Positions 31,204-52,741 of a DNA stretch of 64,000 nucleotides are shown one piece after another. A program made the position numbers and the translations under genes. The DNA comes from a virus (taxonomy: Duplodnaviria > Caudoviricetes). Numbering within the stretch: position 1 is the first letter of the stretch; the number at the start of each line of letters is the position of its first letter. Below the pieces are notes generated by a model. The model worked only from the letters and a program-made list of their open reading frames with translations, did not search any database and had not been told where the DNA came from. The stretch lies in IMG/VR virus record IMGVR_UViG_3300048996_000137, positions 627-64,626 of that record, one strand, 5' to 3'.

Positions 31204-31458
31204 TCACTCCAGCGCGTCGTCGTCATCGTCTTCGCGCACGAAGTAGTAGGTGCCGCTGAGAGCTCGATCTACGGCTGCGTAATACGCTGCGCCGTTGGCG
31301 GGCGTCAGCAGCCCCGCGCCCGTGACGATGGTCTTGATGTGCGGGTAGAGATCCAGCGTCGCGGGCGGATCGACGACAACTTGCCCGCCCACGAGCTCGA
31401 ACGTGCACAGCGTCTCGTGTTCGAGGCTGTCCGGATCAACTTGGATGAGGCGTTTCAC
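31204..31458 (-). CDS. Small acidic protein; candidate partner/immunity of the portal-fused kinase
   Basis: GTGA-coupled to portal-kinase stop; TPANG.AY...L.GTY motif. Confidence 0.6.
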   Translation of the reverse strand: MKRLIQVDPDSLEHETLCTFELVGGQVVVDPPATLDLYPHIKTIVTGAGLLTPANGAAYYAAVDRALSGTYYFVREDDDDDALE

Positions 31459-34337
31459 TTGGTCTTCCGCGAAAGCCGCGTGATCTCTTCGAGGTCTTTC
31501 TTCGAGAGCTCGTCTCTGCGAAACCGCTCTTCGGGAATCGCGTTGATCCAGTGGTGAACCGACTCGGCTGCGTCGTGCGCCGCGCTCCAGCGATAGCCAT
31601 CCTGAAACTGGCGCGGCTCGTGCTGCAGCGAACGCACGCGCGCGAGCGTGGATGCGATCTGGTGCTCGGTGATGCCGTGGTCGTGCAGCATCGAGGCCAC
31701 GTGCTCGAGCTTGAGGCTCTGGAGCGCCGAGACGTGCTCGGGCTGAAACTTCACAACTTCCTCGGCGAACGAAGGTGTTTGCTCGATCGCAAACAGGAAC
31801 CGCGCCGGCCTCTCCGGAAATGTCAGGCCATGGTCGATCGCGACTGGGCGAAACGGATGCGCGTCGGGACCGTCCTCATGCCACAACGTGTTTTGCGGGT
31901 TGCGATCGTCGTTGCCGGCGATGAGGTCGAGCATCAGCATCCGCTTCGAGGCCGGATGCGCGCCGAGCTTGGCGAGCTCGGCGTCCCTGGAATCACGCGG
32001 ATCTGCCGACGACCGCTGCTCAGCTCGCCCGATCGAATCGAAGTACACATTCATGCTCGACTTCGCGTTGGGCTCCCACGCCTGCAGCGAGCCGTCCTTG
32101 CCGTCGTGCTCGCGGTGCACGGTGTGCGGCACCATCTTGTCGCCGGCCAACATCTGATCGAGCTTGTGAAACGCCTGTTCGCGACGACCCATCGAGCCAT
32201 TCGCAAGACCCGCGCGGTACTCCTCCATCTGCGGGATCGGCGGGTTGGCCTTCCAGATCGCGTGCTGCTCGTGGCCGTTTTTGTCGCGCAGCGTGAGGCG
32301 CTTCGAACCGAAGTTGCCCGTGTTCACATCGGTGGTGCTGACAACGTTGAGCTTCTCAGCCGTCATCCACTCGGGAGCCGCAGAAGCACCGCCGGGGGCT
32401 TTCTTGTCGGCAGCAGTCTTGCGCGATTTGCCGCTACGAGCTGGTTTGTCGCCATGCTCGGTCCCGCTTGCCGCTTTCTTCGTCTTCGTCGTCCTGGCGG
32501 CCGCTGGCTTCGCCGCGCGCGCCTTCACCTTTGCGATCCGCTCACGTGATGCTTTGCCGCGCTTGGCTGCAGCGCCGCCCGGACGCGATGCGAACCGCCC
32601 ACCCTTGCCGTGGTTCGGGTTGAACAGCTCGGGCTCGAGCGACAGCCCAGGCTCGAGCTCTTCGTCGTCTTCGTCCTCTTCGTCGTCCTCGTCGACCGCG
32701 TGACGGCCCGCGAGGTTCGCCATCACGATGCCCGCTTCCAGAATCTCAGCGAGCGTGTCGGGATCCTGCTCGTCCGCGAAGGCCTTCAAGATCGCCGCGC
32801 GAGCACTCACGTAGTCCGTTGCGCCATCGACGGCCGCAACCAAGCGATCGACGAGCGGCTGCAGCGCCTGCGCACCCTGCGCGACCGAAGCGTCCGCGAC
32901 GTCGTCCACGTAGAGCTGACCGTTTACGAAGCCGGTGCTCGACTCTTCTTCTTCGTCGTCGTCGGCCGCGAGCCTGGCGCCCGGCTTGCGGGTCGGCTTG
33001 GTGCTACTGGGGAGTTTTTTTTTCAGGCCGCCACCGCCGCCGCCACCAGCTGCGCCCGGTGGAACGGGTGGAGGATTGGCCGCGTCCTTCTCGGCCTGGC
33101 TCATCTCAGTGAGCTTGACGCCGTACTGCTCTTCGATCTCCGCGGCGGTGAGCTTGAAGCCCGCTTGCTGGATCGCGCCGAGCGCGGTGCCGAGTGTCGC
33201 GAGCGTTTCGACCTTCGCGCCTTTGTCCTCGGGCGGGTCGGTGTTGTAGCGAGGGAACGGCGCGAGGCCGCGATCGCCGAAGTTGTACTCAGCCCACCAC
33301 GGCAAGCTCTGCTCTTGCAGAATCCGTCCGAGCTTCTTCGACATGTACCTGAACACGCGGAGCTCTTTGCGCTCATGCGTGTTCGCGGCGGCGTAGCTGC
33401 CGCCCTCCACTTCGGTCGTGAGGTTTTGCCCGACGAGCGCAAGCGTGAAGCCCATGTTCGCGGCTTCGATCTGCGCCTTGTAAATCGACTCGGTGCCGGC
33501 GGTCAGCTCGACGAGCTCGAGCGTGAACCCCTGCGGCAAACTGATGACCGCGTCCTTCGCGAGGTTGAAGATCTCGTTCGCGAGCGCGCGCCGGTCTTCG
33601 GGCAGCGCGCCTTCATTTGAGTTGAGGACGAGCTTCGAAGCTTTCTCCGAATGCACGCCCCAGTCGCTCATCGCGTAGCGCTTGAGCATCCACCACGGCG
33701 AGCAGCCTCGCCATTTGCCGTTCGACCACGGCCGGTAGTCACCCTTGAGCGTGCCGATGATCCATTCGCCGTCGCCGGCGACGATGGGCGTGTCGCGACC
33801 GCTCTCGTCGCGGAACAGCCACGTGTTGTGCTCCCAGTCCCAGCGAAAGTGTTTCGGGTGGTACGTCTTGAAGACGGGCAAGACGCGTCCGCCAGACTTC
33901 GAGGGAAGCCACTGCACGTGCCGCCCGAACGCCAGGCCCACGATCTCGAGCCAATCGAGAAAGCTCGCGAGCTCGTCTTCGCCGTACGCGAGCGGCCAGT
34001 CTTCCTCGAGCTCGGCGGCTTTCTCCGCATCGCCGAGTGTCGAGCGCGCGTCCTTCTCGAACGACAGATCACAGCCGAGCACGCCGCCGCTGACGTCATC
34101 GAGCAGCTTGTTGATCCGATCGTCGGCGATCATCTGATCGCCGAGATCACCGAGCCGAATCAGATCGCCGCTGTCCGCAGTCGCAGTGAGCGTTTGCAGC
34201 GAGCGCGGCGTCCAGTGGAGATAGCTCCGAATGGACGGCTGACTGAGAACCTGCCCCTTGCCACCCTGAATGAGCTGCAGGTGGCCGCGCCGGTTTTTCT
34301 CCGGCGTGCCCGCAGTGGGTGGTCTACGGATGGCCAT
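31455..34337 (-). CDS. Portal protein (DUF935/Mu gp29-like) fused to C-terminal PI3/4K- or HipA-like kinase domain
   Basis: Portal motifs LVGQNLTTE..GGSYA...HE and C-terminal ANLAGR; then AIWK, RREQAFHKLD, VPHTV, GSLQAW, LDLIAGNDDR..N, AIDHGLTF. Confidence 0.85.
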   Translation of the reverse strand: MAIRRPPTAGTPEKNRRGHLQLIQGGKGQVLSQPSIRSYLHWTPRSLQTLTATADSGDLIRLGDLGDQMIADDRINKLLDDVSGGVLGCDLSFEKDARSTLGDAEKAAELEEDWPLAYGEDELASFLDWLEIVGLAFGRHVQWLPSKSGGRVLPVFKTYHPKHFRWDWEHNTWLFRDESGRDTPIVAGDGEWIIGTLKGDYRPWSNGKWRGCSPWWMLKRYAMSDWGVHSEKASKLVLNSNEGALPEDRRALANEIFNLAKDAVISLPQGFTLELVELTAGTESIYKAQIEAANMGFTLALVGQNLTTEVEGGSYAAANTHERKELRVFRYMSKKLGRILQEQSLPWWAEYNFGDRGLAPFPRYNTDPPEDKGAKVETLATLGTALGAIQQAGFKLTAAEIEEQYGVKLTEMSQAEKDAANPPPVPPGAAGGGGGGGLKKKLPSSTKPTRKPGARLAADDDEEEESSTGFVNGQLYVDDVADASVAQGAQALQPLVDRLVAAVDGATDYVSARAAILKAFADEQDPDTLAEILEAGIVMANLAGRHAVDEDDEEDEDDEELEPGLSLEPELFNPNHGKGGRFASRPGGAAAKRGKASRERIAKVKARAAKPAAARTTKTKKAASGTEHGDKPARSGKSRKTAADKKAPGGASAAPEWMTAEKLNVVSTTDVNTGNFGSKRLTLRDKNGHEQHAIWKANPPIPQMEEYRAGLANGSMGRREQAFHKLDQMLAGDKMVPHTVHREHDGKDGSLQAWEPNAKSSMNVYFDSIGRAEQRSSADPRDSRDAELAKLGAHPASKRMLMLDLIAGNDDRNPQNTLWHEDGPDAHPFRPVAIDHGLTFPERPARFLFAIEQTPSFAEEVVKFQPEHVSALQSLKLEHVASMLHDHGITEHQIASTLARVRSLQHEPRQFQDGYRWSAAHDAAESVHHWINAIPEERFRRDELSKKDLEEITRLSRKTK

Positions 34338-34364
34338 GTTGGTAGAAGGGCGGGGGAGGCAGAC

Positions 34365-34748
34365 GTGACGAAAATCACTGACGAAGAAGCCATCGCCGCG
34401 GGTGCAGAGCCGGAGGACACCGACTCGCTGCACGCCGCGCGGCTGCAAGAAGAGAAAGCGCAGCTGCTCGAGCGCGACCTGGTCACCGCCCGCATCGACG
34501 TTCAAAACCGGACACAGTGTCTGCAGCGTGCGGTGCGGGTGCTGCAGACCTTCAAGAGCAATGCCGAGCTCGCGCAAGCGAAAGCGGCCGATGTGGAAAA
34601 GATGCTGAGCGAGCGCGCAATCGACGCCGGCGACGAATACACCGAGGGCACGAGCTGGAAAGAGCTTGGGCTAAAGCACGCTGCCGCCGCGGAAGCGTGG
34701 ACCAAGGCGGCGCAGCTGCTGCGCGAAGCGCTACAGGCTTACGTATGA
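34365..34748 (+). CDS. Helical hypothetical protein, antisense to late operon
   Basis: GGAGG RBS before GTG; fills terminase-portal gap. Confidence 0.6.
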   Translation: MTKITDEEAIAAGAEPEDTDSLHAARLQEEKAQLLERDLVTARIDVQNRTQCLQRAVRVLQTFKSNAELAQAKAADVEKMLSERAIDAGDEYTEGTSWKELGLKHAAAAEAWTKAAQLLREALQAYV

Positions 34749-34764: not shown

Positions 34765-34956
34765 ATGAACGTGCAACTCGAACTGTTCCCGTTACCGGCG
34801 ACGACCTGTCGCTGCGGGCGCGCCCTGACGGCTTTCATCAACTGCTACCGCGAGCGTTGCGATCACTGCATCTTGCGCGAGGGTCCGCCGCCGGCCGGCG
34901 AAGATCCGGAGGCCAAGCGCGTCGCCCTCAAGCGTTGGCTGAACGCTCAGGTGTAG
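34765..34956 (+). CDS. Small Cys-rich protein
   Basis: QLELF, CRCG, CDHC. Confidence 0.5.
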   Translation: MNVQLELFPLPATTCRCGRALTAFINCYRERCDHCILREGPPPAGEDPEAKRVALKRWLNAQV

Positions 34957-36425
34957 CGACCGCCGCCGCCGAGCACTCCGTAATCGTCGAGGTACAACAG
35001 CGCCGCATCGACACCGCTGACAATCGCATCCGTTTGATCGGACACGTCCTGCTCTGCGCCGGTGAAGCTCGTCAGCTCATCGACGAACACCGGCTGCCAC
35101 GGGTGCGCCTCGATGTCTTCGGGCACAAGAATGCGGCCGAGGTTCCAGAGCTCGCTCGAGGTGAGCGAGCGCGTCAGCTTGTCGCGACCCTTCGGGTCCA
35201 TCACGACGAGCGGGATGCCCTTTTCGCGAATGAACGAAGCGCAGCCCGCTTCAGTGCCCGACGCGTACCAGTAGAACTTCGCGCGACGTGTCGAAAACGC
35301 TGCCTTGAGCGTCAGCGTGAAGCTCGGCGCCTCGACCTGCTTGCGCTGCACATCCACGACGTAGAACAGATAATCTTCTTTGCGCTGCTTCTCGCCGCGT
35401 TTGGTCTTCGCCGGCGGCACAACCCACAGCGTCACGAGCACGCTCCAGTCCGCGCGCGTTTTCGCGGTGTACGCGAGGTCTACGCCGTACACGACGCGGA
35501 AGCCCTCGGTGGGCAACTCGCGATAGTACGTCGGCGTCTTGAAGAGCGTTCCGCCGCGAGGCTGCGGCTGGCCCTGATACAGACTCGCGAAGTTCCACTG
35601 GTTGGCGAGCTGCCGCTCGAGCAGCATCGACAGTGGCCGGTGCGCTTCCCACAGCGCTTCGCCAACCGCCCGCTCGTCGCCGGCGGGCATGTCCTCGCCG
35701 TCGCAAATCGCTTTGAGGTTGATGTACTCGAACCCCTGCTCGCGCACGAGGTAGCCGGACAGATCGTCCGGATGCCAGCGCGTCGCCATCACGATCACGC
35801 TCGAGCCCGGATGAAGCCGCGACTCGACGGTGCCGTGGTACCAGTCCTGCTGGTACGCGCGCGTCGCTTGAGATTCCGCTGCGCCGCGATCCTTGAGCGG
35901 ATCGTCGACCATCATCACGCCGTCGATCGGCTCTCCGGTGAGCCCGCCGCCGACCGAGGTCCACACCACTTGGCCGAGCTCTTCGTTGAGCCACAGGCCA
36001 CCGTTCGCGACGGTCAGCGGCACGCGCGCGCGCTGCGCCGTTACGAGCGCTTTGCGCGAGACGCGTCGCGCGCGATCGTCGTTGTACGTCGCGTACGCGA
36101 ATCGCAGCGCGGGCCACTTGCGCAGCCAGAAGCAAATCGCGTGGACAACCGTTTCGGTCTTGCCGTGCTGCGGCGGAGCCGCGAACACGATCCGCAAGTT
36201 CGCGCCCGGCGCCCGCTCGAGCACATCGACGTAGGGCTTGAGATGGAGCGGCGGTTCCCAGCGCGGTGTGATCCGCGGGATCCACTCCATCAGCGCGTCA
36301 GTGAACTGAGTTGGGTCCTGACTTAGGTCCGCGAGCAGCAGGCGCTGGCGGACTTTCTCTTCGAGCGAGGTATGCCGAGCAGAGTGCGCGGAAAACTTCT
36401 GGCTCAAGTAGCCCTTGGGCAACAT
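34947..36425 (-). CDS. terL: Terminase large subunit (start uncertain, perhaps nearer 36290)
   Basis: APPQHGKT Walker A, GG.LTG, VDDP.K, TRWHPDDL.G, LYQGQP, VDLA, FT...DQ.DA. Confidence 0.95.
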   Translation of the reverse strand: MLPKGYLSQKFSAHSARHTSLEEKVRQRLLLADLSQDPTQFTDALMEWIPRITPRWEPPLHLKPYVDVLERAPGANLRIVFAAPPQHGKTETVVHAICFWLRKWPALRFAYATYNDDRARRVSRKALVTAQRARVPLTVANGGLWLNEELGQVVWTSVGGGLTGEPIDGVMMVDDPLKDRGAAESQATRAYQQDWYHGTVESRLHPGSSVIVMATRWHPDDLSGYLVREQGFEYINLKAICDGEDMPAGDERAVGEALWEAHRPLSMLLERQLANQWNFASLYQGQPQPRGGTLFKTPTYYRELPTEGFRVVYGVDLAYTAKTRADWSVLVTLWVVPPAKTKRGEKQRKEDYLFYVVDVQRKQVEAPSFTLTLKAAFSTRRAKFYWYASGTEAGCASFIREKGIPLVVMDPKGRDKLTRSLTSSELWNLGRILVPEDIEAHPWQPVFVDELTSFTGAEQDVSDQTDAIVSGVDAALLYLDDYGVLGGGGRYT

Positions 36426-36900
36426 CGAGGAACTCGTTGAGCTGGTCGTCGATCGTGTGAACGACGCGTGGCGACCAGTGCTGCGGGTTGCGGAGCGCCA
36501 GGCGTTGGAACGCGACCATCGCGGCCGATTCCTTCACCTTCTGCGCGGCGCCCATCTCGCCGGCGAGCTGCAACATCTCATCGGTTGTGATCGCGTAGCG
36601 GTGCCCGCAGCGCTCGCACGCGACCGGCTTGTGGTCGAGGTTCGCCGCGCGCGCGGTCGTGATCACGTCGTTGACTTCGCCCTCGTCGGACGCCTTCTGC
36701 GCCTCTTCGAGAAAGAGCGTGTACTTGTTGCGTTTGCCCGCGGCCGCGGCCGCACGCCACTCGTGCAGCCGCTGGCGGCGGATGCCGCACGCAGACAGCG
36801 CGGTGGAAAGCGTATTGCCGCCTCGGACCAGCAGAAGCACGCGCTCTCGAACTTCTTCGAGGCGCTTGGGCGCTTCAGACTTCTTCTTCGGCGGCAGCAC
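36298..36900 (-). CDS. Terminase small subunit-like protein (HTH + CxxC)
   Basis: N-terminal HTH (GNT..A...CGI....L.EW); L.LR.PQ.W; upstream of terL. Confidence 0.7.
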   Translation of the reverse strand: MLPPKKKSEAPKRLEEVRERVLLLVRGGNTLSTALSACGIRRQRLHEWRAAAAAGKRNKYTLFLEEAQKASDEGEVNDVITTARAANLDHKPVACERCGHRYAITTDEMLQLAGEMGAAQKVKESAAMVAFQRLALRNPQHWSPRVVHTIDDQLNEFLDVAQGLLEPEVFRALCSAYLARRESPPAPAARGPKSGPNSVH

Positions 36901-37990
36901 GCGCTACGTCCGTCAGCGGTTCTTCGTCTGCTTTTTCTTCGTCTTCTTGGCCGACTTCTTCGCTGCCTTCGCCGGTGCGCTCGGCGCTTTCTGTGCCGTT
37001 CTCTTCGTCATGCTCGTCTCCAACAACGGGGTGCTCTTCGTCCTGTTCGAGCTCGGGTAGTTCGCGGTCGACGATCGGGATCGCCACGAGCGCATCGCGC
37101 GCCATCGCGGCCTCGCGCTCAGTCATCTGCGTGATCTCACGGGCGGCGGCTTCGCGCGACTGCTCCGCGATGCGGGTCTGCTCGGCGCGCTGCTGCTGGT
37201 AGAGCGGCTCGAGCAGCGCATGCAGGCGCTTGCCGTCCTGGAATGTGTTGATCTCGAGGCCGAGCGTTGTCATGAACTTCTCGCTGTCCTCGACGTCCTT
37301 GAACACCACCACGATGTAGAAGTGCTCGCGATCGCGGCCCGCGTTCAGGTTCGCAGTCACCGCGTCGATCGCACCGCTCACATCGCGCTGCGCCTGCGCG
37401 AGCGCTTGCAGCTCCACGCCATGCTCGAGCGCAAAGGGGCTCTCCCCCAGCACGTGCATGATGTCCGCCATGTCGAAGCCGGTGGCTTCGAGGCGCAAAC
37501 CCTCGGTCCGCAGCGCCGCATCGAGCTTTTCGAGATCGAACAGCCCGTGCGTCTCGGGGTTGTTCAGCAGGATGTTCGCCTCGACCTCTTCGGCGAACGT
37601 GAGATCGACCTCCGCAACCTGCAGCGCGTACGCGGGCTTGCCGCCCGCGAGCTTGTCGAGCAGAGCGAGGCGCTGATGGCCGCCGACGAGCGTGCCACTG
37701 CGCCCGTTCCATACGAGCGGCTGGAGCAAGCCCAGCTTCTCGAGCCCGCCGCGCAGCTTCTTACGAGACTGGTCGCTGATCACGCGCGGGTTGTATTCGG
37801 CGTTCTTGATGTCCGCGCGCCAGATCGTGCGAGCTCGGTACTTCTGAAGCGGATGCACGTGCGCCAGCAGGTCGGCGCCGACGTCGCGTTCGGCTCCCCC
37901 TCCCACTGCAGCCATTCTCGGTGCATCCCCTGCTACCGCAGCACTTAGCGGGGAGACCGGGTCGTCGGTGGGCTCAGATGCCGACGCCAT
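36875..37990 (-). CDS. ParB/Srx-like domain protein
   Basis: AEYNPRVIS, GLLQPLVWN..SG.LVGGHQRL, E..ANI.LNN. Confidence 0.9.
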   Translation of the reverse strand: MASASEPTDDPVSPLSAAVAGDAPRMAAVGGGAERDVGADLLAHVHPLQKYRARTIWRADIKNAEYNPRVISDQSRKKLRGGLEKLGLLQPLVWNGRSGTLVGGHQRLALLDKLAGGKPAYALQVAEVDLTFAEEVEANILLNNPETHGLFDLEKLDAALRTEGLRLEATGFDMADIMHVLGESPFALEHGVELQALAQAQRDVSGAIDAVTANLNAGRDREHFYIVVVFKDVEDSEKFMTTLGLEINTFQDGKRLHALLEPLYQQQRAEQTRIAEQSREAAAREITQMTEREAAMARDALVAIPIVDRELPELEQDEEHPVVGDEHDEENGTESAERTGEGSEEVGQEDEEKADEEPLTDVARAAAEEEV

Positions 37991-38645
37991 AAAACTCTCG
38001 TCGCTTCACGATCGCGTGCACGAAGGGAAACACCGCGCGCAGCTTCGCGTAGTCGTTCGGAAACTTGTCGTGCAGCCAAAGCACATCGGGCGTCGCAAGC
38101 CCGATGCCCGTCATCGCTCCGCCGCTCGACTCGGGCAGCGGGATCTTGTGCACCGCCAAGTAGCCGAGCACGTCGGCTTTGCCCCAGCCGACGAGCGGAT
38201 GCATCACGTCGGTGTAGTGAGCGGTGTTAGCGAGGTTGCGCTTGCGCCAGAGCGAATCGCCGCGGCGCGCGCCCGTCGCGATCATCTTGATGCCCGTGCG
38301 ATCGATCATCAGGTTGTAGATGTCGCGCAGCTTCACCTCGGGCAGGTCTTCGAGCTTCCAGCTCGGGAACATGTAGAAGCCGTACTTGAGCGAGCGCGCC
38401 ACCGTCCAGTGCGGCACCTGATGGATCGTGACGCCGTAGCGACTGCGCGCGAGCTCGAGCCGCCGCTCGATCACCTCGAGCCCCGGGATGAAGTACATGA
38501 AGAACGCTTCGACCCGCGCGAACGTGCGCACGCACATGTCGAGGACGCACAGCGAATCCTTGCCCGCGCTGAACGACACGAGGCACGCGTCGCTGCGCTC
38601 CTTGGCCTTGTTCAGGATCCCGAACGTTTCCTGCAGCGGGTCCAT
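37974..38645 (-). CDS. PAPS-reductase-like (PP-loop/adenine nucleotide alpha hydrolase) protein
   Basis: SFSAGKDSL, TGARRGDSL.R, PL..W...DV..Y. Confidence 0.9.
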   Translation of the reverse strand: MDPLQETFGILNKAKERSDACLVSFSAGKDSLCVLDMCVRTFARVEAFFMYFIPGLEVIERRLELARSRYGVTIHQVPHWTVARSLKYGFYMFPSWKLEDLPEVKLRDIYNLMIDRTGIKMIATGARRGDSLWRKRNLANTAHYTDVMHPLVGWGKADVLGYLAVHKIPLPESSGGAMTGIGLATPDVLWLHDKFPNDYAKLRAVFPFVHAIVKRREFYGVGI

Positions 38646-38654
38646 CGGCGCGGA

Positions 38655-38891
38655 TCAGCCCGCGCCGCCGCGCGAGAACTTGCCGCCCTTCTCGTGGCGG
38701 TAGTCGCCTTTGCCACCGCCGCCGCCGCCGCCGCCGCCGCCAAAAAGACGACGAAGAGCCGCGCCCGCTGCAGCGGCCGCCGTCTTGATCGAGAACGTGC
38801 GGCCGCTCTTCTTCTTCTTGCGCGAGCCCGAGGAGCGCCTCAGCGCGGCTGTGCCGCCGCCGAATCGACCACCAACGTTTGTCGTCGCCAT
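38655..38891 (-). CDS. Basic Gly-rich peptide B (78 aa)
   Basis: GAGG RBS; ends GGKGDYRHEKGGKFSRGGAG. Confidence 0.75.
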   Translation of the reverse strand: MATTNVGGRFGGGTAALRRSSGSRKKKKSGRTFSIKTAAAAAGAALRRLFGGGGGGGGGGKGDYRHEKGGKFSRGGAG

Positions 38892-38967
38892 CGTCGAAGC
38901 CCCTCGGTTGAAAGTCCAAAACGAGAAAGAGGGCACGCGGCTGCGTGCCCTCTTTCGGAACTCGGGA

Positions 38968-39114
38968 TCAGCCCGCGCCGCCGCGCGAGAACTTGCCGCC
39001 CTTTTCGTGGCGGTAGTCGCCCTTGCCGCCTTTGCCGCGGCCTTTCTTCGACTTGCCCGCGCCCGCCGCAGCGCCCGCCGTTTTCACTGCCATCGTTACG
39101 TTTTTGCGTGCCAT
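38968..39114 (-). CDS. Basic Gly-rich peptide A (48 aa; below ORF-track cutoff)
   Basis: GAGGAG RBS; hand translation MARKNVTMAVKTAGAAAGAGKSKKGRGKGGKGDYRHEKGGKFSRGGAG. Confidence 0.75.
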   Translation of the reverse strand: MARKNVTMAVKTAGAAAGAGKSKKGRGKGGKGDYRHEKGGKFSRGGAG

Positions 39115-39270
39115 GGAGTCTCTCCTCGCGCGCGTGCGCGTCTGTGTCCGGTTGTCCGGCTCAAGCGCGGCTCGAACTGCCGGTCAATCTCGTCCTCGAC
39201 TGCTGACGACACAACCCCAGTGACATGCACCGAGGCTGCGCGAGCCCTATGAATGGGTGCTGCGCCAGCC

Positions 39271-39306
39271 GTCGCCCGTTGTCGCTGGCTGTCGCTCGCT
39301 GTCGCT
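39271..39306. repeat. Four GTCGC repeats at exact 10-bp spacing
   Basis: GTCGC at 39271, 39281, 39291, 39301 in divergent intergenic region. Confidence 0.7.
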
Positions 39307-39333
39307 CCAATCGTCGTCTAGTGTGCGGCTGCG

Positions 39334-39564
39334 ATGGACCAAAACCCTACAGACGACGAAGACCACGTGCCGACGGGCCCAAGCGCAGCGCTGCTCGGTC
39401 TCGACGGCGAAGACCTGTTCACCGAGATCGTCGAGCTCGTGCGCGACAAGGACGCGTGGCTCGCGTTCATCGCGAGCAAAGAAGCCGAAATCCGCGCGAT
39501 GGCGCTCGATGACGAGGCCGCGGAGCTGATTTTGCGACGGTTGCGCGGCGAAACGGACGAGTGA
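39334..39564 (+). CDS. Acidic hypothetical protein
   Basis: Coupled to next ORF. Confidence 0.5.
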   Translation: MDQNPTDDEDHVPTGPSAALLGLDGEDLFTEIVELVRDKDAWLAFIASKEAEIRAMALDDEAAELILRRLRGETDE

Positions 39565-39986
39565 TGGTCCGCAAGCGCAAACGAGGCCGTGTGGTCAAAG
39601 CTGTGCCGCCCGAGCTCGCGCTGCCGACGCCGGTCTCGCCCCTGGTCGCGATCGGCATGGCCGACCACCTCGGCAAGTTCATGGCGCTGCCGTCGCGCAT
39701 CCGGACCGCCGGCGAGCTCGTCCACGAAGCCGACGTCGGCGACGTCTCCGTGAGCGGAACCCGCAACGCACTCAAGCTCGCGAAGGCGTTGCTCGAGCAA
39801 GCGGCGCGCGACGTGGACAAGCGGCTGGCCACGCTCGAAGAGAAGCTCGAGCGCGCCGTCAACGAAAAACTGACGAGCGTCGAAACGACCGCGACAAACG
39901 ACGCCGCGCGGCAAAATTCAAAAGCGAAAGCGAAACCCCTTCGGGGTTCGAAGGGGAAGAGGGGCCGGGGGCGCGAGCCGTTCTGA
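39561..39986 (+). CDS. Hypothetical coiled-coil protein
   Basis: Coupled ORF. Confidence 0.55.
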   Translation: MMVRKRKRGRVVKAVPPELALPTPVSPLVAIGMADHLGKFMALPSRIRTAGELVHEADVGDVSVSGTRNALKLAKALLEQAARDVDKRLATLEEKLERAVNEKLTSVETTATNDAARQNSKAKAKPLRGSKGKRGRGREPF

Positions 39987-40057
39987 AGCCGGAAAACTCC
40001 CGCACTCTGCACGGACGTTTGCGCGAGTTTCGCGCGTTGGTATGCTCGCCGGCCGAG

Positions 40058-40477
40058 ATGGCGAACACGCGACCCGTCACCTACACGACCCGCGTCTCGG
40101 TCCCGATCACGGCCGGACACCGCGAGGCGCTGCGACAGTGGTGCTCCGAACACGACACCGGCATGGGAATGCTGCTGCGCGAGAGCGCGCTCGAGTTCAT
40201 CGGACGCGCGGACCTGAGCCGCGCCGGCGACGCCCCGCCCATCACGGTCGGTCAGATGCTGCAGCGCCAGCCGTACACCCGGCAGGCCAAGCGCCACGGC
40301 CCCCGAATCGTCGTGCACTTCACGAAGCAGCAGCGCGCCGCGCTCGAGCACGCCGCGCTCGAGCGGAACGTGTCGCTCGCCAGCCTCATCCGAGACGCCT
40401 CGCTCGCCGCCATCGGCCTCAAGCCCGCGCCGCCCCTCGGGCGTGGTCGCCCGCTCGGCAGCCGGGCCGCCTCCTGA
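40058..40477 (+). CDS. Tandem ribbon-helix-helix DNA-binding protein
   Basis: Two RHH-like units: RVSVPIT....AL...LLRE.AL..IG and RIVVHFT....AL..AA....SLASLIRD..L..IG. Confidence 0.7.
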   Translation: MANTRPVTYTTRVSVPITAGHREALRQWCSEHDTGMGMLLRESALEFIGRADLSRAGDAPPITVGQMLQRQPYTRQAKRHGPRIVVHFTKQQRAALEHAALERNVSLASLIRDASLAAIGLKPAPPLGRGRPLGSRAAS

Positions 40478-40812
40478 GCTCTGTGTGTGTGGCAGGCCCT
40501 CCCTGTTGTGGGGGGCGCTCCCCCCAGTGAGGGGTGCAAGTGGCCTTGCAGACAGGCCCCAGGCCCCCCCAGGGCCCCAGGCCCCTCAGGCCCCCCAGGC
40601 AGGCCCCAGGGCCCTCAGGCCCCAGGCAGGGCCCCAGGCAGGCCCCAGGGGGCCCTGTTGACACCATCCCAGGACCATGCCAGCATACCAACTCCCCCCT
40701 CACTGGGGGGCGCAAGGGGCCCCTCAGGGGGCCTGGAATGCTCCCACATGCCCCCTCCTGAGGGGGGCCAGCTGGACAGCTGCCTAGGCCCCCCACAGGG
40801 GGGAAACCTGGC
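40478..40812. repeat. CpG-depleted non-coding island with CAGG/C-run repeats and 15-bp inverted repeat
   Basis: Only two CG dinucleotides seen; AGGCCCC-type repeats 40554-40650; IR 40520-40534/40696-40710. Confidence 0.85.
40658..40686 (+). promoter_or_regulatory. Candidate sigma70-type early promoter
   Basis: TTGACA-N17-CAGCAT upstream of early operon. Confidence 0.5.
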
Positions 40813-40935
40813 GCCGTTCTCTGAAAACTGAATCAGCCCAGACAGCTCGACGCCCCCTGGGGGGGCTCCTAGCCGGTCTCGTTCAACGCCGCGCAACACG
40901 CGCGGCGTTGATAAGGCCGGAATAGGAGCATACCA

Positions 40936-41322
40936 ATGTCGTCGAAGCATCATCAGCACCAACAGAGTCGGCAGCAGCCGGCTCAGCCTGCCGCAACGAC
41001 GGTCGTCGCAATCGCGCCGCCTGCCGCTGCACCGGGGGCCAAGCCTGTAGAGGCAACGCCGCCGGCGGAGGCCAAACCTGAAGCCAAGCCAGAAGCGAAG
41101 CCGGAGGGGAAGCCTGCGAAGCGGGCCGTGGTGCTGGGGGAACACGAGACGAAGATGCTGGAGATCAATCCCAACGACATCCTGTTGTTGGTCAAGAGCT
41201 ACGCGTTGACGCTCGGGTGCACTGCAGACCAGATCGCGGCGATCAACGCCGCACTGGTCAAAAAGCACGGCGACGCACTGGAAGCGATCGCTGCGGTGTT
41301 TCCCCCAGTACCTGCGGACTGA
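40936..41322 (+). CDS. Early hypothetical protein with PEAK repeats
   Basis: AGGAG RBS. Confidence 0.7.
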   Translation: MSSKHHQHQQSRQQPAQPAATTVVAIAPPAAAPGAKPVEATPPAEAKPEAKPEAKPEGKPAKRAVVLGEHETKMLEINPNDILLLVKSYALTLGCTADQIAAINAALVKKHGDALEAIAAVFPPVPAD

Positions 41323-41435
41323 CATCCCTGTGGGGGCGCGCACTGCGCGTGCGCGCTCCCCACGCCCCACGCCACGAGATGTTTCGTGACGTGAGGCGTG
41401 TGGCGGCAAGTCGCCGCCCACGGGGAGTTGTTCCG

Positions 41436-41669
41436 ATGAAGTACGACGTTGTTGTGCATCGCACCGGTCACGTGTGGCCGGCGCAGACCGAAGCTGAAGC
41501 GATTGCGACTGCTCGCACCGTTTCACGCAACGAGCTCGGCCCAGTGTTCACGTTCGTGAACGGCCAGCAGGATCGCGAGTACACGAACGGCAAGTGCGTG
41601 GCGCGTTACTACCGCCACAGCACCCCGGCGAAGAAAGCGGTCAAGAACCGAAGCCGCAAGGCTGCTTAG
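41436..41669 (+). CDS. Early hypothetical protein
   Basis: GGGAG RBS; MKYDVVV start. Confidence 0.65.
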   Translation: MKYDVVVHRTGHVWPAQTEAEAIATARTVSRNELGPVFTFVNGQQDREYTNGKCVARYYRHSTPAKKAVKNRSRKAA

Positions 41670-41771
41670 TCCCGACGGCTTGGCGCGCACGGATGCGCGC
41701 CGCTTGTCGCCAGGCACTCACAACGGTGGGCGCTTGGCGCAAGGCAATCCGCCGAAACGAAAGGGACGTGA

Positions 41772-41972
41772 ATGACTCTGACTCGAGACCAGCTCGAGGC
41801 TGGCAATCACGAATGCGTGCGAGCGCAGTCGTGGTGGGAACACGACGCGCAAGGCATTCCGCTCTGCCGCGTGTGTGACGAGTGCCGCGAAGCAAAGCTG
41901 TCGCGGTACAGGCCGGAGATTCTCACCGGCTACGACCAGAGCGATGTGAACGAGCCGATCGAGGCCGATTGA
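41772..41972 (+). CDS. Small Cys-containing phage protein
   Basis: DAQGIPLCRVC..C...KL..YRPEI. Confidence 0.7.
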   Translation: MTLTRDQLEAGNHECVRAQSWWEHDAQGIPLCRVCDECREAKLSRYRPEILTGYDQSDVNEPIEAD

Positions 41973-42175
41973 TGATCTGGGCGCACCCCTCGCCGAACGT
42001 GTGGACGCACGGTGACTGGAGCATCGAGCGCGTCGGTCATGGCTTCCAAGTCTGGCGCGTGCTCGACCCCAGGACGCGCCTGAGAAAGAAGCGCGGCAGC
42101 TACGCGTCGCTGGACGACGCGAAGCAGGCCGTCGCTGAAATGATCGCGGCGCTCTACGCACTCGGAGAGCCGTGA
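41972..42175 (+). CDS. Early hypothetical protein
   Basis: TGATG coupling; SLDDAKQA. Confidence 0.6.
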   Translation: MIWAHPSPNVWTHGDWSIERVGHGFQVWRVLDPRTRLRKKRGSYASLDDAKQAVAEMIAALYALGEP

Positions 42176-42271
42176 ACGCCCCGCGTACCTCCCGGTACGC
42201 GGCAGCAGCTGACGCATGGCCGCCGTCAGCTGCTGCCGCGTGCTGAACCCAGCACGGGAAAGGAGGCAAAA

Positions 42272-42562
42272 ATGAACTACCGCAAAGTCGCGACCAAGTT
42301 CCCCCTCGGGCGCGTGGTCACGACGCCGAACGCCGCGAACGAGGTCGCTCAACCGACCCTGCTCGCGGCGCTCGCGCGTCATGCCAACGGCGACTGGGGT
42401 GAAGTGCACGCAGACGATGTCGGTGCCAATGACCGCGCGCTCAAGGCTGGCGATCGGCTCCTGTCGGTCTACCCGATCACACCCGAGTCGTCGGAGCGCT
42501 TCTGGATCATCACCGAAGCCGACCGCAGCTCCACCACGATCTTGCTGCCCGAAGACTACTGA
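42272..42562 (+). CDS. Conserved plasmid/phage leading-region protein
   Basis: F.LGR.V.TP.A, RH..GDWG, RLLS.Y, WIITEADRS.TTILLPEDY. Confidence 0.85.
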   Translation: MNYRKVATKFPLGRVVTTPNAANEVAQPTLLAALARHANGDWGEVHADDVGANDRALKAGDRLLSVYPITPESSERFWIITEADRSSTTILLPEDY

Positions 42563-42571
42563 CAGCTGACG

Positions 42572-42675
42572 CACGGGGCGTCGAAACGCGTCCGCCGCAC
42601 AAGCGCGCGATGCCAGCGGCGACGGACGCGTCCGCACGGAATGGACCGTGCGCTGATGAGATGGAGTTCCCCGTG
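42572..42675 (+). ncRNA. Hammerhead ribozyme, type II (copy 1)
   Basis: GTC-GAAA-C stem III (GCGTCCG/CGGACGC) GTC, stem I CGCACGG/CCGTGCG, CTGATGA-GAT; outer stem CACGGGG/CCCCGTG. Confidence 0.88.
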
Positions 42676-43092
42676 TTGATCATTGAAAACCAAAACTACT
42701 TCGAGAAGGTGCTGCGCTTCGCGCGCGCGACCGACCAGTTGCCGAAGCTACTCAAAGAGCTTTGGCGCCTGCACACGTTCGGGCAAGCACGCGAAGTTCC
42801 CGACCAGCCGCCCGCATTCGCCGAGGGCTGCGGACAGTTTCCGCCACCCGAATGGACGAAGTACGGCGACCAAACGCAGTGCTTTCTACACTCGGACTTC
42901 GCGCCGGCGAGCTTTTACTTTGTGCTCGAGAAGGGCGGCCAGCGCTGGTTCAACGGCGGGCTCATCTACCACGGCAAACAAGCGGGCTGGACGATGCCCA
43001 ACGGCCAAGTCATCCCCGAAGGCTTCGGTGTCGAGACCTTCAACGTGCAGCTCGTGAGCTCTCCCGAAAACCCCTGGAGCATCAACACATGA
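42673..43092 (+). CDS. DUF4120-like protein
   Basis: DFAP.SF.F, NGGLIYHG, F.V.L....WSINT. Confidence 0.7.
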   Translation: MLIIENQNYFEKVLRFARATDQLPKLLKELWRLHTFGQAREVPDQPPAFAEGCGQFPPPEWTKYGDQTQCFLHSDFAPASFYFVLEKGGQRWFNGGLIYHGKQAGWTMPNGQVIPEGFGVETFNVQLVSSPENPWSINT

Positions 43093-43262
43093 GCCGGCCC
43101 GACAGCTATCCGGAGCCCACAGACGAAGAGCCGAGCCACGATCAGCTCCAAGAGTGGGTGTGCGACAGCATGTGCGAAGCGACCGACGGTTGCTGCATCG
43201 AACCCGATGGCATCTGCGAGCACGGTCACCCGAGCTGGCTCATTCACTACGGCTTGATCTAG
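43089..43262 (+). CDS. Small Cys/His phage protein
   Basis: CEATDGC.IEPDG.CEHGHPSWL. Confidence 0.75.
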   Translation: MSRPDSYPEPTDEEPSHDQLQEWVCDSMCEATDGCCIEPDGICEHGHPSWLIHYGLI

Positions 43263-43316
43263 GTCGAAACGCGCGGAGCTCCGCGCGTCGCGCCGTATAC
43301 GGCGCCTGATGAGACC
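43262..43316 (+). ncRNA. Hammerhead ribozyme, type II (copy 2)
   Basis: GGTC-GAAA-CGCGCGG agct CCGCGCG-TC-GCGCCG tata CGGCGC-CTGATGA-GACC. Confidence 0.92.
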
Positions 43317-43330
43317 AACGGAGCATACCA

Positions 43331-43573
43331 ATGATGTTACGACGTGACGAATATCTGTACGTGGCCATGCCGAACGACACGCTCGTTCGCGTGGCCGCGA
43401 TTTTCCCGACGGTTGCGGCTGCGAACGCGCACTTGCACGAGCATCCGCACCACATGGTGGCCGCGCGCTTCGAGAAAATGATCGTGCTGTGCGCGGTGCG
43501 CGACTCGGGCTTCCATCCGCCGAGCGAGCTCCTGCGCAAGCGCAAGGCCAAGCGACGCAAGAGCCCCAAGTGA
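43331..43573 (+). CDS. Early hypothetical protein (paralog of 44509..44745)
   Basis: RV.AIF.....AN.H..EH shared with 44509..44745. Confidence 0.65.
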   Translation: MMLRRDEYLYVAMPNDTLVRVAAIFPTVAAANAHLHEHPHHMVAARFEKMIVLCAVRDSGFHPPSELLRKRKAKRRKSPK

Positions 43574-43887
43574 CGACGCACATCACAGACAATCACAAGC
43601 GCGCGCTCGACTGGATCATCGAATGTCCGGACAACGTTGCCCTCGTGTCGTGTTTCGTGGACGGCAAACCGACCGCGGCGATCGTCGCAGTCAGCGACGA
43701 TCGGGCCGGACCCGTGCTGCAAGCGCTGTTCATCGCGCCGACCGACGAGATGGTGCTCACCGAGCACCACGAGGCGCGAACGCCCGCTGAGCAACGTGTC
43801 TGGGAGTTGCTCGAGAAAGCCCAGATGGCCGAGGCGAACATCGAGCCCGACGAGCTCTTGCGCGCGCTGCGAGGAGGTGACTCGTGA
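43570..43887 (+). CDS. Hypothetical protein
   Basis: GTGA coupling; ALVSC..DG.P.A.I. Confidence 0.6.
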   Translation: MTTHITDNHKRALDWIIECPDNVALVSCFVDGKPTAAIVAVSDDRAGPVLQALFIAPTDEMVLTEHHEARTPAEQRVWELLEKAQMAEANIEPDELLRALRGGDS

Positions 43888-44273
43888 CGCCCGAATCGTT
43901 CGGCCACGTCTACTGGCTGCCTCGGCTCGGAAACTGGTCCGACGACAAGTTGCCGCGCCGTCGCGGCAACCTCGTTCTGCAGCGCTGGATCTGCGCCGGC
44001 AAACACCATCGTCCGATGGTCGTTCGCGAGAGCGTGCTGCGCGCGGTCTTGCGATCGGTGCGCAAGCGCAACCCCTCGGTCGTCGTGCGCTCGCACGCGA
44101 TCGAGGTGCAGTACGACCGGGGCCGCATCTGCCTGCACTTGCACGACGCGACCGAAGTGCTCGGCAAGCTGTTTCACTTTCACCTGCAGCAACAGCCCGC
44201 ACTCACGCCGCCGACCGTCCATCCGCTCGAGCTCGCCGAGGTTGAGGAACTAAAACAAAGGACAACGCCATGA
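43884..44273 (+). CDS. Hypothetical protein
   Basis: GGAGG RBS; coupled. Confidence 0.55.
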   Translation: MTPESFGHVYWLPRLGNWSDDKLPRRRGNLVLQRWICAGKHHRPMVVRESVLRAVLRSVRKRNPSVVVRSHAIEVQYDRGRICLHLHDATEVLGKLFHFHLQQQPALTPPTVHPLELAEVEELKQRTTP

Positions 44274-44512
44274 ACCGTGATTACGAAGACGGCTACATGC
44301 CTCGCTTCGAAGACGACTACGACCCCGACGACTACGACCCCGAGTTCGCGCACCCCGGCGGCGAAAGCGCGCTGCGCGCAGCAGGCCCCGACAACCCGCG
44401 CAACCTCCCATGCCCCAACTGCGGCGAGCCCGATCGGCTCACGCCCAAGGACAGGTCGCTCGGCTATCAGTGCGATGCGTGTGCGCGCGCGGCTGAAGGC
44501 TGGGGACCGTGA
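44270..44512 (+). CDS. Small Zn-ribbon phage protein
   Basis: PGG.SALRAA...NPRNLPCP.CG...RLT..D...GYQCD.CA. Confidence 0.75.
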   Translation: MNRDYEDGYMPRFEDDYDPDDYDPEFAHPGGESALRAAGPDNPRNLPCPNCGEPDRLTPKDRSLGYQCDACARAAEGWGP

Positions 44513-44745
44513 CAACGCTCCTCGGCCACGAGATCTACATCCGCTCCGGCCTCGGGCGCATGCTGCGCGTCACCGCGATCTTCACCGACGCCGAGCAAGC
44601 CAACGAGCACATGCTCGAGCACGCCGGTCAAAGCGTCATCGCAGTGATCGGCCCAACCTCCGACCCCGCGTTCATCCTGCTCGCCGAGGTGGCTGACAAG
44701 GGCTTCGCGCTCCGCCGGCCTGCAGTGGACACAACGCCCAAATAG
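44509..44745 (+). CDS. Early hypothetical protein (paralog of 43331..43573)
   Basis: LRVTAIFTDAEQANEHMLEH. Confidence 0.65.
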   Translation: MTTLLGHEIYIRSGLGRMLRVTAIFTDAEQANEHMLEHAGQSVIAVIGPTSDPAFILLAEVADKGFALRRPAVDTTPK

Positions 44746-44794
44746 AGCATACCATTCGCCCTCACCCACACCCCCCAAGGAGCACGGTCCAAAC

Positions 44795-45238
44795 ATGCTC
44801 TACTCGATTGGATATTCAGGGCTGAGCCCTCAGGAGCTCAAGCGCATGCTCGATCGGCTCGGCGTCGATGTACTCGTCGATGTTCGTGCCAAGCCGATGT
44901 CGCGCAAGCCCGGGTTCAGCAAAAAGGCGCTGCAGACTCAGCTCGGCGCGCGCTACGCATGGCATGGCGATGTGCTCGGTGGTCCAGGCGGCGGCGGCGC
45001 CGTGCAACCGCGCGGCCTCGCACTGCTCAAGCGTCTTCACGACTCCGGCAAGACCGTCATGATCATGTGCCTCGAACACAAACCTGAGCACTGCCATCGC
45101 CACACCGACATCGCGGCCAAGCTCTTGCCCGCGATCGAGGTCGAGCACGTGTTCGAAGACTCGATCGTGCTTGCGAGCGAGCTGCAGCACGCGCTCGACA
45201 CCGACGTCGCTGCGAAGCTCTACGACTTGCCGGAGTGA
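44795..45238 (+). CDS. DUF488 family protein
   Basis: YSIGY, LVDVR..P.SR.PGFSK, LGG, MC.E..P..CHR. Confidence 0.9.
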   Translation: MLYSIGYSGLSPQELKRMLDRLGVDVLVDVRAKPMSRKPGFSKKALQTQLGARYAWHGDVLGGPGGGGAVQPRGLALLKRLHDSGKTVMIMCLEHKPEHCHRHTDIAAKLLPAIEVEHVFEDSIVLASELQHALDTDVAAKLYDLPE

Positions 45239-47885: not shown

Positions 47886-48070
47886 TCGAGCACCCGGCCA
47901 TCTGCGCTCAGGCACAACGGGTCACCGCTCGGCTGCACCCGCACGTGACCGCCGCGACGTTTGCAGTCCTGTTCGTGCTGATGCCAGCAGTTGGCGAGCG
48001 CGTAGAACGCGACGATGAAGCAGGCGAAGGCGCAGCCCATCGTGACCAGCGCAAGCATGCCGCGCTTCAT
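47882..48070 (-). CDS. Small membrane-anchored protein
   Basis: N-terminal TM; C...GG...LCL..DGR. Confidence 0.55.
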   Translation of the reverse strand: MKRGMLALVTMGCAFACFIVAFYALANCWHQHEQDCKRRGGHVRVQPSGDPLCLSADGRVLE

Positions 48071-48741
48071 CGTGCGGCCCCGTACTTGATCCGCAGGTCC
48101 GGCCCGGTGTCGGTCACGAACACCGCCTGCTGCCCCAGGCGCGACGTGATGCGCGGGTCCGAGTAGCGCCGCGCGAAGTCGGAATCGGGCATGTTGAACG
48201 TCACGACCGTGCGGCAGTCGGTGTTCTTGCGTGCCTCGAGGAGGCGCACGAGCGACGGCTGCAGCTTCGCGCTCGAGCGTTCGGTCCCGAGGTCGTCGAT
48301 CACGAGCAGCGAGCACTCCATCGCGCGTTCCTGCATGTCTGCGAGTGGGCCAAACCCCGCCGCGAACGAGCGCTCGAGCGCTTGGGCTGAAAACCACGCG
48401 ACGGGGCCGGGCCCGTTCGCGATCGCGTAGGCCGAAGCGACGCTCTTGCCGCAGCCCGTGCCGCCCCGCAGAAAGAGCCACGGCGGGACGTCGGTCTTGC
48501 GTAGCCATCTGCGGACGGCCTCGAGGGAAGTGCCGACGTGCGGCATGGCCGCGCCCGCGATGATGGCTTTGCGGCAGTGCTCGACGAGGGGGACGCGCTC
48601 GGCATCGAGCCGCTGCTTGCGGCCGGCGCGCGCTTGGGCCTCGGCGGACTCGCGGTTATTGCGTTCGATGCGGGCCGCACCCTCGTCGTCGATGATCAGG
48701 GGTTCTAGGCGCGCCAGGACGGCTCGTAGTCGCTCGGTCAT
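48067..48741 (-). CDS. DnaC/IstB-like AAA+ helicase loader
   Basis: GGTGCGKS, LLVIDDLGTE, T.N, RI.SRL. Confidence 0.9.
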   Translation of the reverse strand: MTERLRAVLARLEPLIIDDEGAARIERNNRESAEAQARAGRKQRLDAERVPLVEHCRKAIIAGAAMPHVGTSLEAVRRWLRKTDVPPWLFLRGGTGCGKSVASAYAIANGPGPVAWFSAQALERSFAAGFGPLADMQERAMECSLLVIDDLGTERSSAKLQPSLVRLLEARKNTDCRTVVTFNMPDSDFARRYSDPRITSRLGQQAVFVTDTGPDLRIKYGAAR

Positions 48742-52696: not shown

Positions 52697-52741
52697 AACC
52701 ACAGTCCACCAATGGACTGAAACATACCACAGAGGTTGCGG

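Follow-up and report, generated by a model that had tools for sequence, protein, structure and literature searches.

What keeps the dinucleotide CG out of a 335-bp, GC-rich segment of a phage genome that is elsewhere full of it? The segment, hereafter the island (40478-40812, no strand assigned), lies in a 64,000-nt stretch of DNA (the window; all positions are counted in it unless a record base is named) that represents bases 627-64626 of a 64,626-bp virus record. Its left edge is the stop codon of a gene for a likely ribbon-helix-helix (RHH) protein (40058..40477), and the next gene on the same strand begins at 40936. Our preferred answer, which we offer tentatively, is that the island is a lineage-specific, non-coding regulatory cassette in an accessory plus-strand operon, and that its sequence grammar excludes CG.

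The depletion is deep, sharply bounded and confined to this place. The island holds two CGs at a GC content of 0.734, a CpG observed/expected ratio (O/E) of 0.045; the whole window holds 9642 CGs, with an O/E of 1.40 and a GC content of 0.656. All sliding 335-bp windows together averaged 50.3 CGs (sd 7.0), with a minimum of 2, and those with 12 or fewer merged into a single stretch, 40415-40903, so similar windows are not common elsewhere in the sequence. CG-free gaps of 195 bp (40516-40711) and 101 bp (40711-40812) both fall in the island and are the longest in the window, where the next is 72 bp. Both CGs, at 40516 and 40711, stand within GGCGC, as the initial annotation of this DNA had reported, and the words TCGA, GATC and CGCG, which it had found missing, indeed occur 0 times each here, compared with 709, 553 and 1572 times in the rest of the window. 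In a 100-bp profile the O/E is 0.94-1.9 before the stop codon of 40058..40477, 0.00-0.08 for the following 300 bp, and about 1 after 40800.

Neither coding, nor the general composition of intergenic DNA, nor repeats alone can account for the lack of CpG. Open frames run on both strands of the island, among them a listed open reading frame (ORF) at 40534-40761 with a GC content of 0.71 at second codon positions, and none has the genome's codon-position GC pattern, on which ground a coding reading was ruled out. Thirteen other intergenic regions of the phage have O/E values of 1.20-1.55 and a pooled probability of 0.426 that a C is followed by G; at that rate the 134 Cs of the island should yield 57 CGs, and the probability of two or fewer is 2.5e-29. 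Outside any repeated 7-mer the island has 81 nt, with 29 Cs and 0 CGs (P about 1e-7), and because this unrepeated sequence is CG-free as well, something specific to the island excludes CG. Chance or ordinary drift in composition would hardly produce a fall from about 50 to 2 CGs per 335 bp at 73% GC with such sharp bounds; thus something specific acts on these 335 bp of a phage control region.

A metagenome-derived record with a patch of alien composition invites the suspicion of an assembly artefact or chimera, which the initial annotation had named as its own possible undoing, but we find this hardly conceivable. There is phage sequence on both flanks, the left edge falls exactly at a stop codon, and the right part of the region carries the ribosome-binding site of the next gene. 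Moreover, a contig from a second assembler (Logan; 24,930 nt, depth 86.7) spans 39300-42300 with 0 differences, 0 indels and no joints. Because it is identical over that range, a quirk of one assembler is excluded, the Logan run possibly being the source sample and so providing an independent assembly rather than independent reads.

The island is written in a narrow vocabulary. CAGG occurs 18 times, as the earlier description of a CAGG-built sequence implied, and the palindromes named with it are present. CCCC occurs 26 times (145 in the rest of the window), GGGCCC five times (four in the rest, where its O/E is 0.05), CCTNAGG four times (four elsewhere) and CCWGG 11 times (84 elsewhere), and the only CCTAGG of the window is here. 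A C is followed by A 34 times, by T 21 times and by G twice, junctions from G to C are direct (GC, 36), and CC or GG makes up 40% of the dinucleotide steps.

These counts bear on local selection against a CG-directed activity of host or phage, which would leave a control region that behaves alike whatever the modification state of the DNA. The CG-free state of the unrepeated linkers and of the spacer of a candidate promoter argues for such selection, as do the sharp edges at the stop codon and at 40812, the joint absence of TCGA, GATC and CGCG, and the look-alike islands described below, which are CG-free against CpG-normal backgrounds. However, the other 63.7 kb carries 9,639 CGs (O/E 1.4), other intergenic and control regions are CpG-rich too, and because of this the activity would have to be tolerated everywhere else. 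No C5 (PF00145) or N4/N6 (PF01555) methylase matched in the phage, although the controls were positive, nor did TGT/DpdA (PF01702). The crowding of the island with further restriction-type palindromes, which are scarce in the rest of the window (GGGCCC, CCWGG, CCTNAGG, CCTAGG, GGCC), argues against a general nuclease-avoidance zone. On balance we judge CG-directed selection unlikely. From the initial annotation, which had proposed strong selection of this kind, we retain that something specific excludes CG; the settings it had suggested, an injected end, a packaging end or an origin, find no support, for reasons given with the relatives.

The island has a definite anatomy. An inverted repeat of 20 nt brackets its central part. 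The left arm (40510-40534) is a G6-CGCT-C6 hairpin overlapping C6-AGTGA-G4, and the right arm (40694-40713) is C6-TCACT-G6 (40694-40710) followed by CGC; 40515-40534 is the reverse complement of 40694-40713 save one extra T, with the 5-nt loops and GCGC included, and the only two CGs of the island lie in these arms, one in each. A small hairpin with a 6-bp stem (TGCAAG / CTTGCA, 40535-40550) stands in unrepeated sequence and also appears in the RNA fold. It is followed by an irregular CAGG(G)CCC(C) array (40553-40657) whose plus strand is the C-rich one. The array has 14 CAGG at spacings of 4-10 bp; Tandem Repeats Finder gives periods of 7, 9, 11, 29 and 39, in repeat families D1-D3.

The array stops 1 bp before TTGACA (40658-40663), the only copy of this hexamer on either strand of the window, where base composition predicts 6.0 per strand. 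With a 17-bp spacer ending in TGc and a CAGCAT at 40681-40686, it forms a candidate sigma-70-type promoter on the plus strand (40658-40686), whose −10 matches at three of six positions and has TG at the extended −10 position. The right arm of the inverted repeat begins about 7-8 nt after this candidate −10. From its sequence a promoter is plausible here, and to that extent the master promoter that had been suggested for the island keeps its place. As a separate observation, consensus sigma-70 hexamers are nearly absent from the window as a whole (TTGACA once, with 12 expected on both strands; TATAAT, TATACT, TAGAAT and TACAAT 0 times), perhaps because spurious promoters are avoided, or because the host follows other promoter rules.

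Since the candidate promoter and the array lie together between inverted repeats, the 159-bp segment 40535-40693 could be a promoter switch that flips between the arms at 40515-40534 and 40694-40713, whose match, down to complementary 5-nt loops and GCGC, would suit such a role. We consider this highly improbable. The sole recombinase of the phage is an integrase 21 kb away, and no serine recombinase or resolvase family matched in the genome. The single Logan contig has one orientation and no joints, although contigs cannot show minor forms.

Downstream of the candidate promoter, the plus strand contains a run of C-run/loop/G-run hairpins: C4-TCA-G5 (40720-40731), C5TC-CT-GAG6 (40751-40767), C6-ACA-G6 (40789-40803) and, beyond the CpG-free part, C5-T-G7 (40853-40865). 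When hairpins of at least five Cs, 1-7 nt and at least five Gs were counted, 40478-40870 had 4, compared with 0.56 (sd 0.68) in dinucleotide shuffles, none of 1000 of which reached 4, and the rest of the window had 0. Fourteen of the 52 runs of at least five C or G in the window fall within 40510-40865. The RNA fold of 40688-40945 is far more stable than shuffles (z −6.6 for the plus strand and −5.8 for the minus strand), the opposite strand folding well too because the elements are palindromes; the array half (40478-40690) folds no better than shuffles (z 0.09). The leader ends in an imperfect 30-bp inverted repeat on the plus strand (I2, 40865-40929; 73% complementary) whose 3′ arm covers AGGAG (40924-40928), 7 nt before the ATG of 40936-41322, in both the minimum-energy and the centroid folds. 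Rfam gave 0 matches at gathering thresholds for the whole window and, at E values up to 10 on 40400-41000, sub-threshold matches to miRNA-like hairpins only. A 10-nt direct repeat, AGCATACCAA, flanks the hairpin leader at 40682-40691 and 40927-40936; its first copy overlaps the candidate −10 and its second runs into the ATG of 40936-41322. It could be the mark of a duplication or an insertion.

Taken as a regulatory cassette, the island would work as follows. The array lies 5′ of TTGACA, read as part of a sigma-70-type promoter with an extended −10, and the 20-nt inverted repeat brackets both. The predicted transcription start, about 40693, coincides with the first hairpin in a series of four to five, all very stable and of the C-run/loop/G-run form, and the transcript leader would end in a helix that hides the ribosome-binding site of 40936-41322. 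In the RNA the hairpins would stabilise the 5′ end and gate translation. The array would most likely be a protein-binding or structural upstream element, for which the adjacent RHH protein is the obvious candidate binder. The lack of CG would be intrinsic to the element: a C-run is followed by A, T or a short loop and then by a G-run, G-runs meet C-runs directly (GGCC, GGGCCC), and the few unique linkers obey the same CG-excluding grammar. In this account the composition, the anatomy, the absence from relatives and the look-alikes elsewhere are observed, whereas it is by inference that the promoter is active, that transcription starts there, that the hairpins work in RNA, that the array has this binder and that CG is excluded for this reason.

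The candidate binder is a 139-aa protein encoded on the plus strand by a gene of typical coding character (GC at third codon positions, GC3, 0.91). Its residues 85-130 match the VapB26 antitoxin in the PDB (E 0.0035), the Pfam family DUF6290 was hit below the cut-off (E 0.0048), and an AlphaFold2 model of low confidence (mean predicted local distance difference test score, pLDDT, 52) places a strand at 83-87 and helices at 90-102 and 107-118. These signs are weak but concordant, and they make an RHH domain in the C-terminal half likely. The tandem RHH gene of the initial annotation is borne out in that half; its N-terminal half, and with it the tandem, come from reading the sequence only. Among 65 candidates the protein had no homologue but itself.

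If the array is instead primarily an element of DNA structure, it would form a G-quadruplex (G4) or i-motif, or bend through Mg-dependent GGCC/GGGCCC curvature, and serve next to the promoter as a supercoil-sensitive activator, an insulator or a roadblock. Phased GGGCCC gives DNA curvature, and GGCC recurs in the array at a mean spacing of 9.9 bp. Together with the high share of CC/GG steps this suits a structural role, as does the presence, on the minus strand of the array, of two of the five canonical G4 motifs of the window (four G-runs of at least three, loops of 1-7; 40557-40585 and 40591-40623), a third lying 0.5 kb upstream; the arrays of the viral contigs L031, L012, L050 and L307 are also of G4 type. 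However, G- and C-runs share one strand, so that a quadruplex has duplexes and hairpins as competitors; the G4Hunter score of 1.92 reached by the array is surpassed elsewhere in the window; the GGCC spacing is noisy (7-13 bp); and the CG lack of the linkers would stay unexplained. We rate an element of DNA structure as distinctly unlikely.

We next turn to the relatives, which carry the claim that the cassette is lineage-specific. The phage terminase has relatives at 55-66% identity, and among 142 loci fetched through terminase relatives (1,891,927 bp) there were 0 CG-free gaps of at least 120 bp at a GC content of at least 0.60, so that the equivalent islands for which the initial annotation had suggested a search did not appear. 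In the 57 of these loci with GC of at least 0.60 and O/E of at least 1.0 (739,297 bp), the lowest count was 9 CGs per 300 bp, always in low-GC windows, and the longest CG-free gap was 83 bp. Two loci, L083 (62%) and L342 (61%), keep a module of PAPS-reductase, ParB, small-terminase (TerS) and large-terminase (TerL) genes (PAPS, 3′-phosphoadenosine 5′-phosphosulfate). They have no island within 2.4 kb (L083) and 6.6 kb (L342) upstream of it, and their longest CG-free gaps, 40 bp in L083 and 102 bp at a GC content of 0.51 in L342, include no GC-rich CG-free stretch. Ten proteins of the plus-strand operon had no tblastn match in 163 terminase-relative loci (the 142 and a further 21, L083 and L342 included), whereas the two module-bearing loci have matches to PAPS reductase, ParB and TerS. 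The island and its operon are therefore a variable, lineage-specific part of the genome, and because relatives keep the packaging module without either, a function tied to that module is unlikely.

This bears directly on the proposal that the island is a packaging signal, a genome end or a replication origin, which we rate as very unlikely. Sites of these kinds typically contain repeats and palindromes, the late/packaging operon starts 1.4 kb away, and in L030, a contig with a similar region, that region lies directly upstream of terS and terL. Against this, three plus-strand genes stand between the island and the divergent control region, terS is 3.6 kb away, and the relatives that retain the packaging module lack the island. 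The terminase is of the Terminase_6 type among its relatives; enzymes of this type usually package by headful. Nor does the idea of first-injected DNA or a packaging end find support in the record, which closes on itself: its first 127 bases recur at its end (it is classed as complete with direct terminal repeats), as expected from a circular assembly, and the Logan contig runs straight through the island.

For an origin, which the initial annotation had listed too, the island lacks an AT-rich unwinding segment, being 73% GC throughout, and a better candidate, probably the actual origin, lies at 49.09-49.32 kb beside the gene for a DnaC-like loader (48067-48990). There, at 49090-49320, in or next to ORF 48738-49745, we find at least three iterons of the GTGAC(CC)ACGCG type, a palindromic hairpin (49108-49131), a CG-free, AT-richer run of TTCCAG / CCCTT repeats and a minus-strand G4 motif (49186-49205). 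Close by, ARAGORN calls a 94-nt tRNA-Asp (49352-49445) within a long GC3-rich minus-strand ORF, probably a false call.

Are there similar islands outside this lineage? We scanned 2.9 million viral contigs for patterns made of the island's own words, and among the matches listed a few non-coding islands share its vocabulary and are CG-free against their own CpG-normal backgrounds. In L275 (7586-7943) 359 bp are CG-free at a GC content of 0.68, in a genome with GC 0.62 and O/E 0.95, between convergent genes and next to a divergent, regulator-like pair. L030 (6310-6560) has 252 CG-free bp against a background O/E of 0.93, in a non-coding region of about 6330-7478. The L055 island (11400-11545) precedes a TTGACA-17-TATATT promoter within a divergent control region, and L307 (11700-12000) has intergenic (GGGGGTCCCT)n followed by (GGGGACCGACCT)n. 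L365 (640-870) repeats a GGGGCCCTCAGGGCCC palindrome that resembles the units of the island, and L031 (2455-2530) carries about 12 perfect GGGGCCT heptads and then a duplicated, promoter-like 21-mer. Perfect GGGGCCT arrays of at least three units occur in only 3 contigs, in phage intergenic regions. A homologue of the PAPS reductase (41% identity) is encoded in the L275 contig and absent from four of the five look-alike contigs searched. A link between the island and the PAPS-reductase/ParB pair was rejected, given that four of five look-alikes lack PAPS reductase and that L342 and L083 have the pair and no island.

It is possible, though doubtful, that the island belongs to an undescribed class of phage intergenic elements that exclude CG whatever the CpG content around them. 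Such elements would be GC-rich, 100 bp to about 1 kb long, built from G-runs, C-runs, GGCC/GGGCCC and CCWGG-type palindromes, and placed beside promoters or terminators at module boundaries; this phage, L275, L030, L055 and perhaps L307 and L365 would be members. Their freedom from CG would then reflect a specific requirement of structure or recognition; an example would be a factor, of host or phage, whose reading of RNA hairpins or of DNA with GG/CC steps is upset by CG steps or their modification.

The same contigs, and the absence of the island from relatives, also bear on whether this is foreign or newly expanded low-complexity DNA: a decayed minisatellite, a captured spacer or an import with accessory genes. 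CG-free seed motifs would have spread by slippage and duplication with too little time since for CG to arise, and the promoter-like hexamer would be incidental or recruited later. In keeping with this, the flanking genes are missing from relatives along with the island, its word usage is alien to the genome, direct 9-mer repeats cover 0.47 of it (0.23 in dinucleotide shuffles, z 2.9), AGCATACCAA and the 20-nt inverted repeat suggest local duplication, and pure (GGGGCCT)n heptad arrays exist in other phage intergenic regions. However, a donor that combines high GC with no CG is not known and was not found, and look-alikes in CpG-normal genomes do not fit a donor-genome signature. The excess of hairpins, the helix over the ribosome-binding site and the single TTGACA speak for function, and 335 bp of junk is seldom kept in phage genomes. 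We hold this origin to be unlikely.

Returning to the regulatory cassette, the look-alikes favour one of its elements: islands with this trait occur in four different genomic backgrounds, so that the lack of CG seems to be a property of the element itself rather than a legacy of a donor genome. Several findings weigh the other way. The −10 matches its consensus at only three of six positions and the consensus scan did not call the promoter. Both strands fold alike, so that folding fixes neither an RNA-level role nor the strand, and none of the island hairpins is followed by a U-tract (there is no T-run after the hairpins, nor was any terminator-like site called within 40478-40935, so that the island does not qualify as an intrinsic terminator). 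The spacing of the array is irregular (4-10 bp), unlike known RHH operator arrays, and a tidier operator-like repeat, TGTCGCT three times at a 10-bp phase, stands elsewhere, at about 39277-39305. Because the look-alikes were found with the island's own words, part of the vocabulary they share was built into the search; when an independent pattern (GGGCCC three times) was used, a local O/E below 0.3 with a background of at least 0.8 was seen at 1 of 119 loci, and such islands are therefore rare. Finally, the grammar describes the lack of CG without explaining why the grammar exists. Candidate reasons are selection against a CG-directed activity, a history of expanded CG-free repeats, and a structural requirement, which might be met by GG/CC and GC steps as the most stable helices, by a quadruplex or by curvature.

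The island lies within a plus-strand operon of small genes of unknown function (39334-45238) that diverges from the late/packaging operon at 39115-39333, a control region that contains the TGTCGCT triple repeat (39277-39305), which itself includes CG. Neither Pfam nor PHROGs assigned a function to the flanking plus-strand genes. The downstream gene (40936..41322, plus strand) encodes 128 aa with a low-complexity N-terminus and has a GC3 of 0.74 and a CpG O/E of 1.07, both below those of neighbouring genes; its product had no match in Pfam or PHROG and no usable Atlas match, and hairpins follow the gene at 41328-41405. Upstream, the end of gene 39561-39986 holds a hairpin, CCCCTTCGGGG, with a minus-strand T-run and a plus-strand G4 motif (39936-39971), just after which comes a candidate promoter of the RHH gene's own (TTGCGC, then TGgTATGCT).

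The phage as a whole is temperate and myovirus-like, because it combines structural and packaging genes with an integrase (62167-63792; a tRNA fragment lies next to it at the record junction), a helix-turn-helix (HTH) repressor-like gene (51261-51962) and the DnaC-like loader. On the minus strand lie the genes for the portal (31455-34577), the large terminase (34947-36425), the small terminase (36298-36900, a weak match), a ParB-like protein (36875-37990) and a PAPS-reductase-like protein (37974-38645), together with those for protease, sheath and tape measure. Its DNA is present in one soil-metagenome run. The closest deposited phages share at most 30% terminase identity and no meaningful DNA similarity, a DNA comparison of 39000-43000 with 50,697 phage records gave one irrelevant 62-bp match, and single-protein searches with the RHH protein, the downstream protein and TerL found no related locus. 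The passages returned by a full-text literature search held nothing relevant on CpG-free phage islands, on quadruplexes in temperate-phage control regions or on the PAPS-reductase/ParB pair.

Other features of the record deserve mention in their own right. The 127-bp terminal overlap (record bases 1-127 and 64500-64626) contains the 3′ part of a tRNA gene beside the integrase; this part is likely the attP core and could identify the attB tRNA of the host. The PAPS-reductase-like and ParB-like genes (36875-38645) stand directly upstream of the terminase genes, a pair that is kept in L342 and L083, with a homologue in the L275 contig, and that resembles IbrA/IbrB. Next to them lie two small minus-strand paralogues (38655-38936 and 38968-39114), whose 3′ ends are nearly identical over about 47 bp (38654-38700 and 38968-39015). 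The Logan contig stops at about 38974; a genome end there was considered and dropped, since this 47-bp repeat accounts for the stop better. Between repressor and integrase, 52736-59884 encodes a 421-aa protein of unknown function, SbcD-like and SbcC-like proteins and a HerA/DUF87-type ATPase, which may form a DNA-end-processing or defence module of the prophage.

If the island is a regulatory cassette, it offers a testable case of how accessory, moron-like genes are wired in high-GC temperate phages, its parts being the lone consensus −35, a repeat array beside the gene for a DNA-binding protein, and a leader of G/C-clamp hairpins. If the look-alikes prove to be one class, they would point to a structural signal in phage DNA or RNA that has gone unrecognised, and metagenomes could be searched for such signals by a simple rule of composition.

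How does such a cassette compare with known systems? In RHH operator arrays, such as the omega-protein heptads of pSM19035 and the tetramer boxes of ParG, the repeats keep a fixed phase. Here, similarly, some 10-14 short repeats abut a −35 element and a likely RHH gene is adjacent; in contrast to those arrays, CAGG recurs at 4-10 bp and GGCC at 7-13 bp, the array lies downstream of the regulator gene, and the protein is an orphan that is a candidate binder only. Repetitive extragenic palindromes (REPs) and the bacterial interspersed mosaic elements (BIMEs) are clusters of bacterial intergenic palindromes, and they resemble the island in that similar GC-rich hairpins cluster directly after a stop codon within an operon; REPs are genome-wide families, however, whereas these hairpins occur only in the island. 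Morons, in the Hendrix-type definition, are extra units of lambdoid and HK97-like phages. Like them, the unit described here sits as an extra between genes, with its own candidate promoter, hairpins after the gene, a deviant composition and absence from relatives that share the conserved module (L342 and L083). It differs in that the odd composition belongs to a non-coding leader and not to the gene, that this leader, at about 460 bp between genes, is of unusual length and CG-free, and that promoter and terminator are here predicted. The PeSL promoter/stem-loop cassettes of T4-type phages, which Arbiol and colleagues are said to have described in 2010, likewise join a promoter and a stem-loop in a module at an accessory-gene boundary in a variable region, although PeSLs are short, AT-rich and present in many copies per genome and the island is a single 335-bp GC-rich element with no second copy in the window. 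By analogy, then, the island would work most like a moron or a PeSL-type promoter/stem-loop cassette.

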